The notes beneath the pieces were generated by a model, which was not told the DNA's origin, ran no database searches, and worked only from the letters and a program-made list of their open reading frames with translations. The position numbers and the translations under genes were made by a program. Below are positions 35,057-48,728 of a DNA stretch of 50,379 nucleotides, piece by piece. The stretch lies in NCBI GenBank assembly GCA_964589005.1, contig CAZPQI010000002.1, positions 1 to 50,379 on the forward strand, read 5' to 3'. Each line of letters begins with the position of its first letter. Within the stretch, counting starts at the first letter, position 1. Source of the DNA: an uncultured Candidatus Saccharibacteria bacterium (GTDB taxonomy: Bacteria; Patescibacteriota; Minisyncoccia; Phycocordibacterales; UBA2100).

Positions 35057-35665
35057 TTATTGATTATCTAAAATACTCCAAATAGTAGTTGCAGCATAAG
35101 TACGGTACGGAGACCATTTTTTTGAAAGCGACTCGATTTTCTTTTTGTTTGGAAGCGATTTTAATTTATATATTTTTTGTATTCCTTTTTGGAGCCCTAA
35201 ATCCCCAGAAGAAAATACATCTTCGTGTCCAAGAGCGAACATAAGAAACATTTCACTGCTCCACGGACCAATACCAATAACTTTTTGAAGTTCTTCACGG
35301 GCTTCCTCATCAGTTTTTTTATGAAGCGACGAAAGGCGTAATGAACGCGCGCGTACGCGCGCACTTAAATCTCGTACTGAGCGAATCTTTGCAAACGAAA
35401 TACCACTTTCTCGTAGTTTTGTATCGTTCATTTTCAAAATTGCTGTTGCACTAGGTTTGTTGCGGGGAAAGAGTGCTCTAAACTTGTTCCAAATAGATGC
35501 CGCCGCTTTACCCGAGAGCTGTTGTCCTACAATAGTGCGACACAGACTTGCGAATAAGTCTTTTTGCACTTGTGGACCATCACGCAAGTCTCCCTTAAAC
35601 GCACGAATCGCCGCGTACAATTTTGGGTCACTTTTTTTGAAATGATTGAGCACCTTTATGTTCAT
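35057..35665 (-). CDS. HhH-GPD superfamily DNA glycosylase (AlkA / 3-methyladenine glycosylase II-like)
   Basis: IVGQQLSGKAAASIW, HhH plus GPD loop LQKVIGIGPWSSEMFLMFALGHEDVFSSGDLGLQKG. Confidence 0.8.
   Translation of the reverse strand: MNIKVLNHFKKSDPKLYAAIRAFKGDLRDGPQVQKDLFASLCRTIVGQQLSGKAAASIWNKFRALFPRNKPSATAILKMNDTKLRESGISFAKIRSVRDLSARVRARSLRLSSLHKKTDEEAREELQKVIGIGPWSSEMFLMFALGHEDVFSSGDLGLQKGIQKIYKLKSLPNKKKIESLSKKWSPYRTYAATTIWSILDNQ
35347..35362. repeat. 16-nt GC palindrome GCGCGCGTACGCGCGC inside the glycosylase CDS
   Basis: Perfect palindrome that encodes ARVRAR in frame. Confidence 0.8.
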
Positions 35666-35721: not shown

Positions 35722-38616
35722 ATGGCTAGCGAAAAGGAATCAAAGAAAAGCGCTGTGGCTCTGCGCGAAGAAGAAATACAGAAATTCTGGGAAGAGAATG
35801 ATATTTTCAATAAATCTGTAGAAAAGGAAGCACCAAATGGCGATTATGTTTTTTACGATGGTCCACCGTTTGCCACAGGCACACCCCACCACGGACATTT
35901 AGTCCCCAGTGTTATCAAAGACGCTATTCCTAGATATTGGACGATGCGCGGATATCGAGTTGAGCGTCAGTGGGGATGGGACTGCCACGGGTTACCGATA
36001 GAAAATATAGTTGAGAAAGAGATAGGAACTAAGAATAAAAAAGATATTGAAAAGCTGGGAGTTAAAAAATTCAACGATCTTTGTCGCGAGAAGATTTTTA
36101 CCTACGCAGACGTATGGGACAAATTCATGCCTCGCTTTGGGCGTTGGGCTGATATGAGTAAGCCCTACCGCACTATGGATAAAGATTATATGGAGAGTGA
36201 ATGGTGGGCATTCAAAACACTTTACGATAAGGGGCTTATTTACGAAGATTATCGCTCAATGCATATTTGCCCACGATGCGAAACTACACTCGCACAAAGC
36301 GAAGTAACAGAGGGTTATGAGACTATAAAAGATTTGGCCGTTACGGTAGAGTTCCCATTAAAAGATGAAGAGAGCACATCAATATTAGCTTGGACTACAA
36401 CGCCATGGACATTACCAGGGAATGTTGCGCTTGCAGTTGGGAAAGATATTGACTATGTCACCGTTGAAAAAAAAGACCTGCCTGCGCAGGCAGGCGAAGG
36501 AGACGGAAAGCTCGTTCAGTTTATCATCGCAAAAGAAGCGCTTGATAATGTTTTCGGAGAAGACGAGTATACAGTTGTTTCAGAGATGAAAGGTTCAGAG
36601 TTGGTTGGTAAAGAATATATTCCACCTTTTGATTCATACACCAACGACGAGACACTAGAAAATCGCGAGAATGCATGGAAAATATATGCTGCTGACTTTG
36701 TAACAACCGACACAGGAACTGGAATAGCACATGAAGCTCCTGCATTTGGTGCTGAAGATATGGAGCTCGCACAAGAAGTAGGGTTGCCGATGATTAAGCA
36801 CGTTGGTATGGACGGCATTATTGCTCCTGAAGTTAAAGAATTGGCAGGGCTCTCCGTAAAGCCAATTGATGACCCACAAGCGACCGATGTAGAAGTAATT
36901 AAATTCTTAGCTAAAAAAGGAATACTATTTGCAAAAGAAAAGTACGAACACTCGTATCCTCATTGTTGGCGATGCGATACACCGCTGATTAATTACGCCA
37001 TGAGTTCGTGGTTTGTTGCAGTTGAAAAGATAAAAAAAGATTTACTTACCTACGCCAAGGAAATCAACTGGTCACCGTCCCATATGAAAGAGGGGCGTTG
37101 GGGAGAATGGCTTAAAGGTGCACGTGATTGGTCAATTTCACGACAGCGCTTTTGGGCGAACACTATTCCTGTGTGGAGATGCAAAAAGTGTAAGAAAGAC
37201 CGAGTGTTTGGCTCAGCCAGTGAACTTGAAGAGGCGAGTGGAGTAGAAGTAAATGATTTGCATAAAGAAGTTGTTGATGAAATCACTGTGCCATGTGAGT
37301 GTGGTGAAGAAATGCGACGTGACCCTGATGTGCTCGACACATGGTTTAACTCAGGCTCAGTGCCGTATGCTTCATATCACTATCCTTTTGAAAACAAAGA
37401 GAAAGTAAACAAAAGGATTCCTGCTGATTTTATTGCGGAAGGACAGGACCAAGTATCCAAGTGGTTTTATTACCAACATGTATTAGGTGGAGGGCTCTTT
37501 GGTAAGCACGTATTTAAAAATGTAGTGTCTCACGGGGTAGTATTAGCAGAAGACGGTAAAAAGATGAGCAAGCGTCTTAAAAATTATTCAGATCCACAAG
37601 GAGTAATTGATAACTATGGAGCGGACGCCATTCGTTTGTACTTGCTCAACTCTCCGGTGGTGCGAGCAGAAAATCTTAATTTTTCTGAACAAGGAGTGGC
37701 TCAAGTGGCGAGTAAAGTGGGAGGGCGTTTAACTAATATATATTCGTTCTATGAGCTATACAAAGACTCGGTACCGCACGAACTAAGTGGCGACAGTACT
37801 AATGTGTTGGACAGATGGATTATAGCGAGGATGTATCAGTTACATACTGAAGTAACACGAGCAATGGATAACTATGAGCTTGAAAGGGCCACGCGGCCAC
37901 TTGGGGAATTTATTGATGACCTTTCGACGTGGTATATTCGCCGCTCTCGCGATCGACTAAAATCTGACGATGAAGAAGACAAAAAAGCGGCACTCGAAAC
38001 TATTCGCTGGGTACTGCGAAAATATGCAAAAGTAGCTGCACCGTTTACTCCATTTATTTCTGAGTGGCTTTGGGCTAGAGTTAAAGGAGAAAAAGAACCA
38101 GAGAGTATTCATTTAGCAAACTGGTGCGAAGCACGGGAAATAGATACCGAAGTGCTGGAAAAAATGAAACAAGTGCGTGGTGTAGTTTCAGCAGCGCTTG
38201 AAAAACGGGCAGAGGCAAATATAAAAGTACGACAGCCACTCGCGTTACTCAAAATCCGAAATTCTAAATCCGAAATTCTAAACGACGAAGAACTTAAACA
38301 ATTGGTACTAGATGAAGTGAATGTAAAGAAGGTGGCGTTTGACGGGAGTATTACTGATGAAGTCGAAATAGATACAAATATTACACCTGAACTAAAAGAA
38401 GAGGGGGATGTACGAGAACTTATTCGTACCATACAAAGTGCGCGGAAAGAAAACGGACTCAATGCAGGGGACGCAGCGCGTGGGGTTATTTCTGGCTCAG
38501 TCGAAACTCTTGAGCTTGCAGTTAAGTTCGCCAACGAAATTGAAAAACAAACCTTGGTGACTGTTGAAAAAGGTGAAGAGCAAGAAGAAACGCTGATGGA
38601 AATCACAAAAAATTAA
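35722..38616 (+). CDS. ileS: Isoleucyl-tRNA synthetase
   Basis: PPFATGTPHHGHL (HIGH), CP1 editing-domain motif WTTTPWTLPGN, and KMSKRLKN (KMSKS). Confidence 0.95.
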   Translation: MASEKESKKSAVALREEEIQKFWEENDIFNKSVEKEAPNGDYVFYDGPPFATGTPHHGHLVPSVIKDAIPRYWTMRGYRVERQWGWDCHGLPIENIVEKEIGTKNKKDIEKLGVKKFNDLCREKIFTYADVWDKFMPRFGRWADMSKPYRTMDKDYMESEWWAFKTLYDKGLIYEDYRSMHICPRCETTLAQSEVTEGYETIKDLAVTVEFPLKDEESTSILAWTTTPWTLPGNVALAVGKDIDYVTVEKKDLPAQAGEGDGKLVQFIIAKEALDNVFGEDEYTVVSEMKGSELVGKEYIPPFDSYTNDETLENRENAWKIYAADFVTTDTGTGIAHEAPAFGAEDMELAQEVGLPMIKHVGMDGIIAPEVKELAGLSVKPIDDPQATDVEVIKFLAKKGILFAKEKYEHSYPHCWRCDTPLINYAMSSWFVAVEKIKKDLLTYAKEINWSPSHMKEGRWGEWLKGARDWSISRQRFWANTIPVWRCKKCKKDRVFGSASELEEASGVEVNDLHKEVVDEITVPCECGEEMRRDPDVLDTWFNSGSVPYASYHYPFENKEKVNKRIPADFIAEGQDQVSKWFYYQHVLGGGLFGKHVFKNVVSHGVVLAEDGKKMSKRLKNYSDPQGVIDNYGADAIRLYLLNSPVVRAENLNFSEQGVAQVASKVGGRLTNIYSFYELYKDSVPHELSGDSTNVLDRWIIARMYQLHTEVTRAMDNYELERATRPLGEFIDDLSTWYIRRSRDRLKSDDEEDKKAALETIRWVLRKYAKVAAPFTPFISEWLWARVKGEKEPESIHLANWCEAREIDTEVLEKMKQVRGVVSAALEKRAEANIKVRQPLALLKIRNSKSEILNDEELKQLVLDEVNVKKVAFDGSITDEVEIDTNITPELKEEGDVRELIRTIQSARKENGLNAGDAARGVISGSVETLELAVKFANEIEKQTLVTVEKGEEQEETLMEITKN
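36477..36494. repeat. 18-nt perfect GC-rich palindrome CCTGCCTGCGCAGGCAGG in frame within ileS
   Basis: Read directly from the sequence. It encodes LPAQAG. The same 9-nt arms recur in glyQS at 41664-41699. Confidence 0.95.
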
Positions 38617-41307: not shown

Positions 41308-42729
41308 ATGACTACATCGGATAAAAATACAGGAGAAAGTAATAAAGACTCGCGCTCTACTTCTAACGGGATGGAAAAAATCGTAAGTCTCGCAAAACGT
41401 CGCGGATTTATTTTTCAAGGTTCAGAAATTTATGGTGGCTTAGCGGGTACATGGGACTATGGCCCACTTGGCGTGGCTCTAAAGAACAATATTAAGAAAC
41501 TATGGTGGGATACGTTTGTTGAAAAGCGCGACGATATGTATGGGCTCGATGCTTCTATTTTAATGAACGAGAAAGTGTGGGAAGTAAGTGGGCACACGGG
41601 TGCTGGGTTTACCGATCCGCTTGTTGAATGCAAAAAATGCAAGAAACGATTTCGCGAAGACCACCTGCCTGCGCCTGTCCGCGCAGACGGGCAGGCAGGC
41701 CTTGAAGATGTAAGTACGTGCCCCGAGTGTAAAGGAGAGCTCGGAGCAAAAAAAGATTTTAACTTAATGTTCGAAACCAAAGTTGGTGCGCAAGGTGACA
41801 CGAAAAGTTATTTACGACCAGAAACAGCACAAGGAATATTTGTGAATTTTAAAAATGTCGTAGACACCATGCGTCCCAAGCTTCCGTTTGGTATCGCACA
41901 AATTGGTAAAGCATTTCGTAACGAAATTGCTCCACGGGATTTTATTTTTAGAACTCGTGAGTTTGAGCAAATGGAAATTGAATATTTTGTAGAAGAAAGT
42001 ACATGGGAAGATGAATTTGAAAAATGGCGCACACGTGTGTGGGAATTTATAGAGTTACTCGGGCTTTCTAAAGAAAATGTACAAGAAGTCGACATTCCTG
42101 CAGGTGACCTTGCTCATTACTCAAAAAAAACTATAGACTTTGAATACAATTATCCTGGGAAAGGCTACGACGAACTACTTGGATTAGCGTATCGTACCGA
42201 TCACGACTTGAAGGTTCACCAAGAGGGAAGCGGAGAAAAAATGTTGTACACTCCAGTGGAAGGAGATCCATTCATTCCGCATGTTATCGAGCCATCGTTT
42301 GGAGTCGAGCGTGCACTTATGGCAGTTCTATCAGAAGCGTACACTGAAGACGACTTAGGAGACGGGCGCGTATTTCTAAAATTAAAACCAGAGCTTGCTC
42401 CAATAAAAGTTGCCGTGTTTCCATTGATGAAAAATCGTCCAGAGCTTGTGGCAAAAGCACGTGAAGTATTCGACGAATTAAAACAAACCATTCCACAAAT
42501 TATGTTTGATGATAACGGTAATGTGGGCAAGCGTTATCGTCGCCAAGACGAAATTGGTACAATCTTGACAGTTGTTGCAGACTTTGAGACATTGGAGGAC
42601 GATACGGTTACTGTTCGTGATCGTGATACGGGCAAACAAATAAGAGTGGCAACTAAGGATTTACTCAACATAGTTACTCAGGTTATAACTGGTGCTGACT
42701 TGTTTAAATTCGGTAAGGTTATTTCGTAA
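41308..42729 (+). CDS. glyQS: Glycyl-tRNA synthetase (alpha2 dimeric, GlyQS type)
   Basis: RRGFIFQGSEIYGGLAGTWDYGPLG, class II motifs YLRPETAQGIF and GKAFRNEI.PR, PHVIEPSFGVER, and an insertion with CKKC...CPEC. Confidence 0.95.
   Translation: MTTSDKNTGESNKDSRSTSNGMEKIVSLAKRRGFIFQGSEIYGGLAGTWDYGPLGVALKNNIKKLWWDTFVEKRDDMYGLDASILMNEKVWEVSGHTGAGFTDPLVECKKCKKRFREDHLPAPVRADGQAGLEDVSTCPECKGELGAKKDFNLMFETKVGAQGDTKSYLRPETAQGIFVNFKNVVDTMRPKLPFGIAQIGKAFRNEIAPRDFIFRTREFEQMEIEYFVEESTWEDEFEKWRTRVWEFIELLGLSKENVQEVDIPAGDLAHYSKKTIDFEYNYPGKGYDELLGLAYRTDHDLKVHQEGSGEKMLYTPVEGDPFIPHVIEPSFGVERALMAVLSEAYTEDDLGDGRVFLKLKPELAPIKVAVFPLMKNRPELVAKAREVFDELKQTIPQIMFDDNGNVGKRYRRQDEIGTILTVVADFETLEDDTVTVRDRDTGKQIRVATKDLLNIVTQVITGADLFKFGKVIS
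41664..41699. repeat. 36-nt palindromic element in frame within glyQS (same arms as the ileS palindrome)
   Basis: CCTGCCTGC-[18 nt GCCTGTCCGCGCAGACGG]-GCAGGCAGG. The window 41674-41691 (CCTGTCCGCGCAGACGGG, offset 1 nt from the spacer) matches the ileS 18-mer at 14/18. It encodes LPA-PVRADG-QAG. Confidence 0.9.
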
Positions 42730-44332
42730 TCTCCACTATATTTCTGTCCGTTTCTCGTATATTTTCAGCAAGAGTTTGCTTACTAATATCAAGAATTTCT
42801 AGTGTTCTTTTTAGGATGTATATGGGGATTCTGTTTTTCTTTAGTTTCCACGCTGATAGTGTGCCTTTATGTATGTTTAGGAAGTAGGCTGCTTTTTTGT
42901 ATGTCCCGAAGTTTCTAAGTAGCTTTTGGAAAAGTTGCTTATGTAAATGATTGCTCAAAAACACAGACGTTTCTTGGCTGGTGTTTTCGTATAATTTACG
43001 TGGCTTTTTTGTCAAATGAATTTTCCGTTGCTTTTGTAATATTCTTAGATATGTAGTGATAATTGGTCTGCTACGTTTAAAATGAGTCTCAAGAAATGCT
43101 ATATCGCAGCCCTCTATGAGTCGGATTAAATCAAGCACCTCACTAATGTTGAAATTTGTTTTGCGAGAATTTGGTTTGGGAACCGGACGTTGTGTAAGGT
43201 CACCTTGTTGCCAAAGCAAAAGTTTATTTTTTTGTGTATTGGGCTCAAAATATTGAAGTATTTTTTTAGGCTCATTTTCTGATGTTGTATACAGGCAATG
43301 TTCTCCTCTTTTGTTAGTAGTTTTTCCGTGACGAATTCCGTCTTTTGTAAAAATTGTTGATATTGAATCTATCAGACCTTTACTTTTAAGGCTAAGCGAC
43401 ATTTGAGAATTATTATTTACAGATCCATCAAACATCAATACTCCTTTTGCGAACTCTTTTTGTATACGCAAATTCGCTTCACATATTATATCTGGTTCGT
43501 GTGCGCTGTATGTCTTTGGCCCAGGCATAACTCCGAAAAAAGTTGTTAGATACCTAGATAATATTTTATTCGAATAAGCGACTCTCCACGCATTAGTCTT
43601 CTGCGTGTAAAATGCCGGACTTATTTTGAATTCTTCCTCGACCCATTTTATAAATGCATCAACAGAATCTTTATAATTTTCTGTTAGTTCTACTACGTTG
43701 TGCGACTGCGAATGAAATTTAGCCAATTTTGTTTGCAAGAGCTTTCTCATATTAGTTGCATTACTTGTATTCACTTGCGTGCTTACATAATGTCCTAACT
43801 TTCGCGACTCGCTTCTGCCTTCTGAAAAGTGAATACGATTTACTTCAAGGTGTAATTTTATTTGTTCCAGTTCCTCTCTGTTGTTGCACTCTATTACAAT
43901 TTGCTCACTCAAACTCCCATCAGCCATAAAAGCCCCTAGTATTTTTGCAAGATTTTCGTTTAGCTTTTTAGGTAGAGTTATGGGTTTTGCAGAAGCTGAA
44001 TTCACCTTTAATATTTCAGTTACTTCATTTATATCTGACAGGAATTTCGTCTTTTTCCTTGTATCTCCGAGTTTTGCCAGCGTGAGAATAAATGGAATAG
44101 GATAGTACAGCCTATCTTGGTGCAGCATGTTTTTTGAAGTACTTAATGCACAGCTTAGCATCTGCGAAATCTTTCGTGCTAGTTTTTCTCGAGACCACCT
44201 ATGTTGTTTTAATACTTCTTGTTCTTTTTCTAGCAGCATTTGTTGGATGTTTGCTCCGTGCACGCATATCCATGATCGTGGATGTAAATCACGATCTTGG
44301 TGTAGCAGTAATAGATTAAAAACTTTACTCAT
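42719..44332 (-). CDS. Free-standing double-motif LAGLIDADG endonuclease-like protein with flanking HTH-like regions
   Basis: Two dodecapeptide motifs, LAKILGAFMADGSL and FAKGVLMFDGSV, about 170 aa apart. C-terminal HTH-like YKKAAYFLNIHKGTLSAWK. The maximal ORF extends to 44377. The 3' end overlaps the glyQS stop region by 11 nt. Confidence 0.75.
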   Translation of the reverse strand: MSKVFNLLLLHQDRDLHPRSWICVHGANIQQMLLEKEQEVLKQHRWSREKLARKISQMLSCALSTSKNMLHQDRLYYPIPFILTLAKLGDTRKKTKFLSDINEVTEILKVNSASAKPITLPKKLNENLAKILGAFMADGSLSEQIVIECNNREELEQIKLHLEVNRIHFSEGRSESRKLGHYVSTQVNTSNATNMRKLLQTKLAKFHSQSHNVVELTENYKDSVDAFIKWVEEEFKISPAFYTQKTNAWRVAYSNKILSRYLTTFFGVMPGPKTYSAHEPDIICEANLRIQKEFAKGVLMFDGSVNNNSQMSLSLKSKGLIDSISTIFTKDGIRHGKTTNKRGEHCLYTTSENEPKKILQYFEPNTQKNKLLLWQQGDLTQRPVPKPNSRKTNFNISEVLDLIRLIEGCDIAFLETHFKRSRPIITTYLRILQKQRKIHLTKKPRKLYENTSQETSVFLSNHLHKQLFQKLLRNFGTYKKAAYFLNIHKGTLSAWKLKKNRIPIYILKRTLEILDISKQTLAENIRETDRNIVEITK

Positions 44333-44548
44333 AATACCTATATTATAGCATGTCTGTAACTTGAAATAGAATGACACCGTTATTCTGCAGATTGCGACAC
44401 AGGAGAACAGACACGCGTTGCACTTACTGCGCTTGTTGGTGAGTTGAAATTAGGCTAACCCTAGAACGTCAGTAGGTTGATAAAATTTACATAGTGGAAT
44501 AGAGTCCATGTGTTCATTAAATCACCACAATAAGGAAAGGAGGAAGAT

Positions 44549-48445: not shown

Positions 48446-48727
48446 ATGTATATAGTTTACCCAACAAAAGAGTACAAGAAGATGTTGAAAAAGTTATCTT
48501 CTCAAAAGAGTTTTGATGAAGACTTACTAAATACAGTAATCGACATACTGATTTCTGGGAATACATTATCCAAGCGATATAAAGATCATAAATTGAAAGG
48601 GAAATTTAATTTATATAGAGAGTTACACGTTAAAAACGATATGTTGCTAATATATACTAAAAATGACAGGCAGTTAATTTTAGTTTTAGTAGCAGTCGGC
48701 TCTCATAGTGGTCTCTTTGGAAAATAA
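48446..48727 (+). CDS. YafQ/RelE-family mRNA interferase toxin
   Basis: HKLKGKFNLYRELHVKNDMLLIYTKNDRQLILVLVAVGSHSGLF matches the YafQ C-terminal catalytic region. Confidence 0.8.
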   Translation: MYIVYPTKEYKKMLKKLSSQKSFDEDLLNTVIDILISGNTLSKRYKDHKLKGKFNLYRELHVKNDMLLIYTKNDRQLILVLVAVGSHSGLFGK

Positions 48728-48728
48728 T

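Follow-up and report, generated by a model that had tools for sequence, protein, structure and literature searches.

What are the 36 nucleotides (nt) at positions 41664 to 41699 of the gene glyQS, and how did they come to lie there? The gene belongs to a 50,379-nt stretch of DNA (the window; positions are counted on its forward strand), and its product is an alpha2-type glycyl-tRNA synthetase (GlyRS) of Paceibacteria-like bacteria of the candidate phyla radiation (CPR), with 8u2q as the best solved relative (E=3e-124). The segment reads CCTGCCTGCGCCTGTCCGCGCAGACGGGCAGGCAGG and can be divided into two 9-nt arms around a spacer, CCTGCCTGC GCCTGTCCGCGCAGACGG GCAGGCAGG, or into CCTGCCTGCG-CCTGTCCGCGCAGACGGG-CAGGCAGG, whose outer 10 and 8 nt together are exactly an 18-mer that is also present in the isoleucyl-tRNA synthetase gene ileS (36477-36494). 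A preliminary description of the locus had given this sequence, had recognized its arms as the two halves of the ileS 18-mer and had read it in frame as LPA-PVRADG-QAG between the CKKC and CPEC motifs of GlyRS (C108/C111 and C138/C141). The sequence and the translation of the open reading frame (ORF) agree with it on these points. The 36 nt are best explained, with a probability of roughly 0.7, as two nested generations of one nonautonomous, translated 18-nt palindromic insertion element that resembles the repetitive extragenic palindromes (REPs) and the Rickettsia palindromic elements (RPEs).

The 18-mer CCTGCCTGCGCAGGCAGG is a perfect palindrome of the form (CCTG)2-CG-(CAGG)2, with no stop codon in any frame and with a predicted hairpin of a 7-bp stem and a 4-nt GCGC loop. 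The exact 18-mer is found once in the window, in ileS, and chance alone would give only 0.01 matches with three mismatches or fewer. The exact 9-nt arms occur at the ileS and glyQS sites only, and both sites form sharp GC-rich islands in a window of ∼41% GC. Comparative alignment of ileS, suggested in the preliminary description, shows the gene of three syntenic relatives (L001, L124, and L125; L and P numbers denote loci and proteins of the comparison) without the 18-mer. The GC hairpin expected in the glyQS mRNA is supported by prediction, with an RNA fold of -23.4 kcal/mol for the 36-mer (z -2.8; equalled by 3 of 200 shuffles) and a DNA fold of -12.9 kcal/mol. An Rfam scan of the whole window yields six tRNAs only and no match at the ileS or the glyQS element.

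Comparison with other GlyRS sequences shows a gain of DNA in a variable region. No counterpart of the 12 codons is present in 118 of the 120 nearest listed homologues, among them the closest relative P0001 with 90% identity, and in an alignment with 36 relatives (67 to 90% identity) 35 read ...REDH/LEDxxxCPEC with no extra residues. The peptide PAQAG occurs in only two of the 120 listed homologues, P0004 and P0044, in both cases at exactly the position seen in the window. Empty glyQS sites read GAC CAT/CTT (L002) and GAT CAT/TTA (L124 and L125), and the gain is clean, with no flanking base duplicated or lost. The length of the loop between the cysteine pairs varies in other GlyRS as well, including the best solved relative, and the AF2 model of GlyRS shows a low-confidence coil across residues 122 to 132 with pLDDT values below 50 at residues 122 to 126 and 128 to 132. 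Judged from these alignments, the 36 nt are an insertion and not an ancestral part of the gene, and the conservation of the 12 codons in GlyRS that would have refuted the preliminary description is not observed. Some GlyRS do carry long lineage-specific segments between the cysteine pairs, which would allow for an old conserved segment of the zinc-ribbon insertion domain; this explanation is refuted by the homologues without the 12 codons and by the presence of the same 18 nt in ileS and dozens of unrelated genes, and it retains practically no probability.

The two homologues with PAQAG reveal a recurrent insertion site. The glyQS gene for P0004 (L001) contains the filled site GAC CA[C CTA CCT GCG CAG GCA GG]C CTC with 1 mismatch to the 18-mer, and the gene for P0044 (L123) contains the exact 18-mer. 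In L001, L123, and the window, the insertion lies at the identical CA/C step of the His119 codon. States of 0, 18, and 36 nt are thus all present across the glyQS lineages (L002, L124, and L125 empty; L001 and L123 with 18 nt; the window with 36 nt); the length polymorphism considered in the preliminary description is seen here as a difference between lineages, not as variation in a single population. The three carriers are not mutual nearest relatives, and each has closer relatives without the insertion. Fourfold degenerate sites between the carrier genes are saturated (0.30 to 0.40 identity) and the copies of the element differ by no more than 1 nt, which rules out an old, neutrally evolving insertion in glyQS. 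On the sequences compared, the site is either hit repeatedly or constrained in its nucleotides. An insertion in the LPAQAG frame requires a boundary between codon positions 2 and 3 at a purine/pyrimidine (R/Y) step, and by our own count the permissive GlyRS loop offers ∼4 such phase-compatible places only, so that repeated hits at one site are less surprising.

The inner 18 nt (41674-41691) resemble the 18-mer itself. As stated in the preliminary description, 14 of 18 positions are identical and one pair is compensatory, the T-A pair at positions 5 and 14. The four differences C5T, T7C, G14A, and A16G are all transitions, and three of them are seen singly in standalone copies elsewhere (L120, L084, and L013). 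Among composition shuffles 0.08% reach an identity of at least 14/18, and among random quasi-palindromes 0.9% do so (P=0.0008-0.009). The flanking G/C step agrees with R/Y, the only flank rule of the 18-mer family. At least six further nested structures with the same arms are found in metagenomes, with inner copies of 1 to 2 mismatches. The claim of a second copy inside the first is supported by these findings, with the refinement that the inner copy lies 1 nt off the center of the outer copy and produces a 10/8 split. On this reading, the four substitutions would have turned PACAGR into PVRADG, all of them changing amino acids; one of them (TGC to CGC) would have removed a cysteine that otherwise would lie between the zinc-binding cysteine pairs. 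The inner copy alone forms no stable hairpin (DNA -1.9 kcal/mol, z -0.1). A duplication of the arms by slippage (9/9 split with each arm doubled) was also considered and rejected for its poor match; the identity of 14/18 appears only in the 10/8 register.

The main competing explanation is a single longer member of the family, in which the conserved arms CCTGCCTGC...GCAGGCAGG surround a variable inner hairpin and the inner 18 nt are filler. A metagenome scan for CCTGCCTGC-N6-30-GCAGGCAGG, which requires intact arms, detects central nesting only, and returned at least 125 gap lengths, gives this explanation some substance: among the matches listed, most gaps between the arms (71/125) have a length divisible by 3, inner hairpins without relation to the 18-mer recur (e.g., GCCGAGGCTTCG and CGCGACGNNCGCGGC), and several elements read LPA...QAG in long ORFs. 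An unrelated inner hairpin of 21 nt also lies between the arms in L072 of the genome set. The match of the window's inner segment to the 18-mer in a single register, through transitions only and at the P values given above, speaks against filler. Five other 18-nt inner segments between the same arms are available for comparison; four of them score just 8 to 9/18, and the remaining one, L260, reaches 16/18 and is a nested copy in its own right. The exact inner sequence CCTGTCCGCGCAGACGGG is found nowhere else in 1.9 Mb of fetched loci. The filler explanation is therefore considered unlikely.

All CPR records are metagenome assemblies, and palindromes are hard for assemblers, which raises the question of an assembly or library artifact at a GC-rich hairpin. 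Such an artifact is hardly credible. A second assembly record, the JGI contig L272, shows 100% identity over 6279 nt, spans both elements, and contains the identical 36-mer. This record was reached by a look-up of IleRS; exact look-ups of the window's GlyRS, made from two alternative start codons, gave no match. The point-mutated copy at the same site stems from an independent ENA assembly and the exact copy from a Logan assembly, the copies lie exactly in frame in conserved genes with a strong codon-phase bias, and the unique sequence of the inner copy is beyond what an assembler would invent. The 18-mer is, moreover, present in isolate genomes.

The spread of the family is apparent from a scan for the exact 18-mer in one genome per bacterial and archaeal species, which found at least 120 stretches with 80 listed titles. 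Among the matches listed, CPR genomes account for 46 of 80, with WWE3, Microgenomates, Woesebacteria, Gottesmanbacteria, Saccharibacteria, Dojkabacteria, Paceibacterota, Kaiserbacteria, Nomurabacteria, and Minisyncoccia as carriers; the others include Bacteroidota, low-GC "Gammaproteobacteria" metagenome-assembled genomes, WOR-3, and Terriglobia, as well as the cultured isolates Litoribacter ruber and Rosettibacter primus. A few matches in high-GC genomes may be due to chance. Copies are present in essential genes and in noncoding DNA, and site occupancy varies among relatives. Host genes encode TopA, PolA, GatB, RecJ, a UvrD/AddA-like helicase, CysRS, ArgRS, a class I aminoacyl-tRNA synthetase (aaRS), another class II aaRS, GyrB, DnaG, PheT, Obg, a Mur ligase, and HsdR, and the position of the 18-mer differs between homologous proteins. 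The copy density amounts to 2 sites in the 50-kb window and to 3 or more in one contig of 598 kb. Length variants contain extra CCTG or CAGG units or a CCGG center, and GGTAGGCAGG is found within some of the 20-mer variants. In L123 (2524-2543), the intergenic region after recO holds the 20-nt variant CCTGCCTGCCGGCAGGCAGG, which is absent there in the window, L001, and L124 and adds a further presence/absence variation in one syntenic block.

Reading frames and flanks characterize the family further. Of the sites in loci of up to 50% GC, 39 fall within long ORFs that are unambiguous, and the frames are 32 LPAQAG, 7 PACAGR, and 0 CLRRQ (binomial p=5e-10); at sites without a long ORF, the frames are split 12/10/10. 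This bias, together with the lack of stop codons in any frame, indicates that the 18-mer in genes is translated and, through selection at the peptide level, kept almost only as LPAQAG. The flanks of 98 sites contain information at positions -1 and +1 only, where the R/Y rule holds for 78 of 94 coding and 48 of 64 noncoding half-sites and Y/R is never seen; no target consensus or duplication beyond R/Y is found in these flanks. A few copies lie at the center of longer palindromes (L067, L071, and L079), which fits the idea of insertion into hairpin or single-stranded DNA.

Two observations on particular carriers stand beside this census. The exact 18-mer occurs at one spot (around nt 10/11) of a partial or damaged tRNA-Gln copy in five CPR genomes (L029:1735, L039:3540, L040:6792, L044:372, and L112:728), between ...GGRTCG and TCTAATGGTAGG, and an intact tRNA-Gln gene is present nearby. 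Possible readings of this site are a hot spot, an old site that has been conserved, and a component of an element targeting tRNAs. The metagenome contig Ga0190315_1001658 (L209; 8845 nt, 57% GC) contains three arm-flanked extended elements, all within open frames of more than 1100 codons (stop-to-stop ORF calls), and is thus unusually rich in them at a GC content unlike that of CPR.

The recurrence of one sequence could also be read as conservation, with the 18-mer as a functional cis-element under selection, for instance, a protein-binding site or an RNA or DNA hairpin acting in translation pausing, mRNA processing, or genome maintenance. The 18-mer is identical across phyla and nearly so in three glyQS lineages with saturated synonymous sites, it recurs at one spot of the tRNA-Gln 5' fragments, and its predicted hairpin is stable, all of which would suit such a function. 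A cis-element is nevertheless very unlikely, as the closest relatives of every carrier lack the 18-mer, its copies have no common position among the unrelated genes that contain them, and its place also differs between homologous proteins. The frame bias points to selection on the encoded peptide rather than on structure alone, the inner copy in glyQS has lost its hairpin stability, and the small number of phase-compatible loop sites makes same-site repeats not very unlikely.

Searches for a mobilizing function or a source of the 18-mer gave negative results within their respective scopes. Clustering of 1434 ORFs from 120 8-kb loci shows no recurrent transposase-like neighbor, only common housekeeping families. 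No longer element with 18-mer ends is found in 0.8 Mb of low-GC loci, where each isolated half-site belongs to a short variant. Viral contigs contain 25 stretches with the 18-mer, mostly on high-GC contigs and in mixed frames, and thus nothing indicates a phage source. The literature searched contains no published description of the 18-mer DNA, the LPAQAG-type peptide, or the element, and that on REPIN/RAYT systems covers known REP work only. The healing of double-strand breaks by addition of (CCTG)n at both ends, an idea prompted by the variation in CCTG units, is speculation and was set aside; the three clean insertions at the same site favor a precise reaction.

For glyQS, a mechanism in two steps is proposed. 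The first copy would have landed cleanly at the CA/C step of the His119 codon in the variable GlyRS loop and been read as LPAQAG. The second copy would then have landed at a G/C step in the predicted 4-nt loop of the first, and the PACAGR frame follows from this position. Hairpins inserted at R/Y steps without duplication and a copy within a hairpin loop suggest a precise, R/Y-preferring reaction, probably on hairpin or single-stranded DNA, and for such a reaction the loop of an existing copy would be a natural target. The 18-mer would be a selfish passenger tolerated in a disordered surface loop rather than a working part of GlyRS.

Several points weigh against two nested generations of a mobile element. 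No mobilizing gene, larger master element, or target duplication is found in the loci examined, so that mobility is deduced from distribution. The copy number per genome is low, yet the sequence is identical across phyla, unlike in known families of REPs or of miniature transposable elements with inverted repeats (MITEs); this combination is the most unusual trait of the 18-mer. Three hits in glyQS at one codon and five at one spot of the tRNA-Gln fragments are a recurrence that could mean old insertions kept by selection at the nucleotide level. In many elements flanked by these arms, the inner hairpin bears no relation to the 18-mer. The outer copy shows 0/18 changes compared to 4/18 in the inner copy, though the latter must be the younger one, and the chance of all four changes falling in the inner half is ∼0.05 by our own calculation. 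Survivorship may contribute here: a perfect nested palindrome of 36 nt with direct arm repeats would delete itself, and mismatched ones would persist. Peptide selection may do so as well, with the inner copy in the unfavorable frame, all four substitutions changing amino acids, and one removing a cysteine. Both effects explain the greater decay of the inner copy only partly.

A bolder version of the nested-insertion explanation is possible but doubtful. Here, the 18-nt palindrome itself would be a complete mobile unit, the smallest known. An enzyme or template acting in trans, either conserved in CPR and several other phyla or exchanged horizontally among them, would write it precisely and without target duplication at R/Y steps and into hairpin loops. 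A shared enzyme or template of this kind would explain the identity across phyla despite few copies per genome.

If the preferred explanation holds, essential conserved CPR genes (for aaRSs, gyrase, primase, Pol I, and topoisomerase I) have been invaded repeatedly by a palindrome translated as LPAQAG. The sites would form a natural map of insertion-tolerant loops in conserved proteins and would provide presence/absence markers for the strain-level population genetics of uncultivated lineages. In the annotation and alignment of CPR proteins, indels of the LPAQAG type should then not be taken as phylogenetic signal. It would also be a puzzle what specifies the same 18 nt in anciently diverged phyla at few copies per genome; the nested copy in glyQS offers one mechanistic clue, as it sits in the loop of an existing hairpin. 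The features of the two elements and of glyQS are compiled in Table 1.

Table 1. Coordinates of the glyQS and ileS elements and of related features in the window
Feature	Position	Strand	Remarks
Composite palindromic insertion, 36 nt	41664..41699	+	Encodes LPAPVRADGQAG, residues 120-131; absent from 118/120 homologues; clean +36 nt compared to L002
Putative outer copy, left 10 nt, CCTGCCTGCG	41664..41673	+	Joined to 41692-41699, gives the exact 18-mer
Putative outer copy, right 8 nt, CAGGCAGG	41692..41699	+	Outer copy in LPAQAG frame
Putative inner diverged copy, CCTGTCCGCGCAGACGGG	41674..41691	+	At G/C step, in predicted loop of outer hairpin; PACAGR frame, reads PVRADG
Canonical single copy, CCTGCCTGCGCAGGCAGG	36477..36494	+	In ileS (35722..38616); LPAQAG in variable loop
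glyQS, alpha2-type glycine--tRNA ligase	41308..42729	+	473-codon ORF; likely true start Met22 at 41371
First cysteine pair CKKC (C108, C111)	41629..41640	+	Near-invariant in GlyRS alignment
Second cysteine pair CPEC (C138, C141)	41719..41730	+	Loop between pairs length-variable across GlyRS

Other palindromes are present in the window and in related genomes. The TatD-like gene (48708..49550, plus strand) contains two more in-frame palindromic insertions, which are unrelated in sequence to the 18-mer: GCGCGCGCC-GAA-GGCGCGCGC at 48876-48896, adding 3 codons, and the 35-nt perfect palindrome CTAGATAAGGGGACGTC-C-GACGTCCCCTTATCTAG at 48978-49012, adding 8 codons, with an outer arm that resembles the inverted left flank. 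Both are absent from the syntenic relatives L001 and L124 and are found nowhere else in the 1.9 Mb of fetched loci. Genes of this genome may thus be subject to palindromic insertion more generally. A 16-nt perfect palindrome, GCGCGCGTACGCGCGC, at 35347-35362 in the ORF of an HhH-GPD glycosylase (35057..35665, minus strand) is probably not an insertion, since the protein comprises 202 amino acids (aa) as in relatives. Another family of GC-rich palindromes, (T)CCGCCAGCTGGCGG(A), is repeated in the same genome set (L068:2080, L084:1716 and 7274, L099:7451, L107:4963, L109:5739, and L114:5471), mostly in noncoding DNA and often nested in a longer palindrome; its distance to the 18-mer is no more than ∼60 nt in L068, L107, and L114.

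The surroundings of glyQS and of the TatD-like gene show further features. Directly downstream of glyQS lies a 552-aa ORF (42719-44377, minus strand) that is absent from the syntenic loci L001, L124, and L125; these have an AI-2E transporter gene after glyQS. This ORF has no Pfam match, and its assignment as a LAGLIDADG enzyme was rejected, as the motif LGAFMADGS is alike by eye only and lacks Pfam support; a 274-aa ORF with a faint LAGLIDADG_3 match lies nearby in L002. The start of the TatD-like gene is overlapped by a 93-aa ORF of a YafQ-family type II toxin (48446-48727, plus strand).

Comparison with known systems places the 18-mer near several groups of short palindromes. HIP1-like palindromes of cyanobacteria arise without a change in length, whereas the alignments of glyQS, ileS, and the TatD-like gene show gains of 6 to 12 codons. 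MITEs (Correia/NEMIS, RUP, and ERIC) share terminal inverted repeats, are noncoding, and are sometimes intragenic and in frame. In contrast to the 18 nt described here, they comprise 50 to 500 bp and produce target-site duplications; the empty site and the filled one differ by exactly 18 or 36 nt, with no repeated flank. MITEs derive from an autonomous insertion sequence (IS) that has the same ends; in the 0.8 Mb of low-GC loci, no isolated half-site brackets a longer element. The GC clusters of yeast mitochondria and the "byp" elements are short mobile GC-rich hairpins in protein-coding genes of AT-rich genomes. Ribosomes skip over byps, in contrast to the translation indicated by the frame bias of the 18-mer, and both types are organellar and lineage specific.

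Hairpins as substrates or targets are known from other elements. The "peel and paste" elements of the IS200/IS605 type (PATEs) have hairpin ends and insert without target duplication, as the 18-mer appears to do, but they use a fixed 4- to 5-nt target and distinct end hairpins, compared to a consensus of only R at -1 and a single symmetric hairpin. Elements of the IS1397/ISKpn1 type insert into the loop of REP palindromes. The resulting structure, a mobile element in the apical loop of an existing palindrome, resembles the nested arrangement in glyQS, with the difference that the incoming elements are full IS encoding a transposase and not an 18-nt palindrome. REPIN/RAYT systems were reportedly described by Bertels and Rainey in 2011. 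Their mobilization in trans is ascribed to a single-copy HUH tyrosine transposase with single-stranded hairpins as substrates. The 18-mer, too, is a hairpin-forming nonautonomous repeat without target duplication. REPINs are, however, REP doublets that lie outside genes, are inherited vertically, and are associated with a RAYT gene that has REPs on its flanks, whereas the 18-mer occurs as single units, intragenically and across phyla, with no recurrent neighboring gene in the 120 loci.

The RPEs were reportedly found in frame in genes of Rickettsia by Ogata et al. in 2000. RPE-1 comprises ∼100 to 150 bp and is confined to Rickettsia. Insertion in frame at surface or loop positions of functional proteins is shared by the 18-mer, which differs in its length of 18 or 36 nt and in its hosts from CPR and other groups. 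REPs are small GC-rich stem-loops of 20 to 40 bp with an unpaired GTAG/CGTC tag and a tail, have many copies per genome, and are largely lineage specific; they also serve as targets of IS (PMC3733652). Compared to this range, the 18-nt unit is just below the minimal size (PMC3733652). No GTAG/CGTC tag is present in the flanks of the 98 sites, and the few copies per genome are shared by many CPR classes, Bacteroidota, and others. As to an association with RAYT, the 1434 ORFs of the 120 8-kb loci contain no recurrent transposase-like family. Like REPs and RPEs, the 18-mer is a short GC-rich palindrome, in frame in functional genes, often those of replication, repair, or translation, and apparently a selfish passenger tolerated in loops (PMC3733652). 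By analogy, intragenic REPs and RPEs are the closest known systems: the 18-mer fails the testable features of REPs, yet it works like both as an in-frame selfish palindrome in housekeeping genes.

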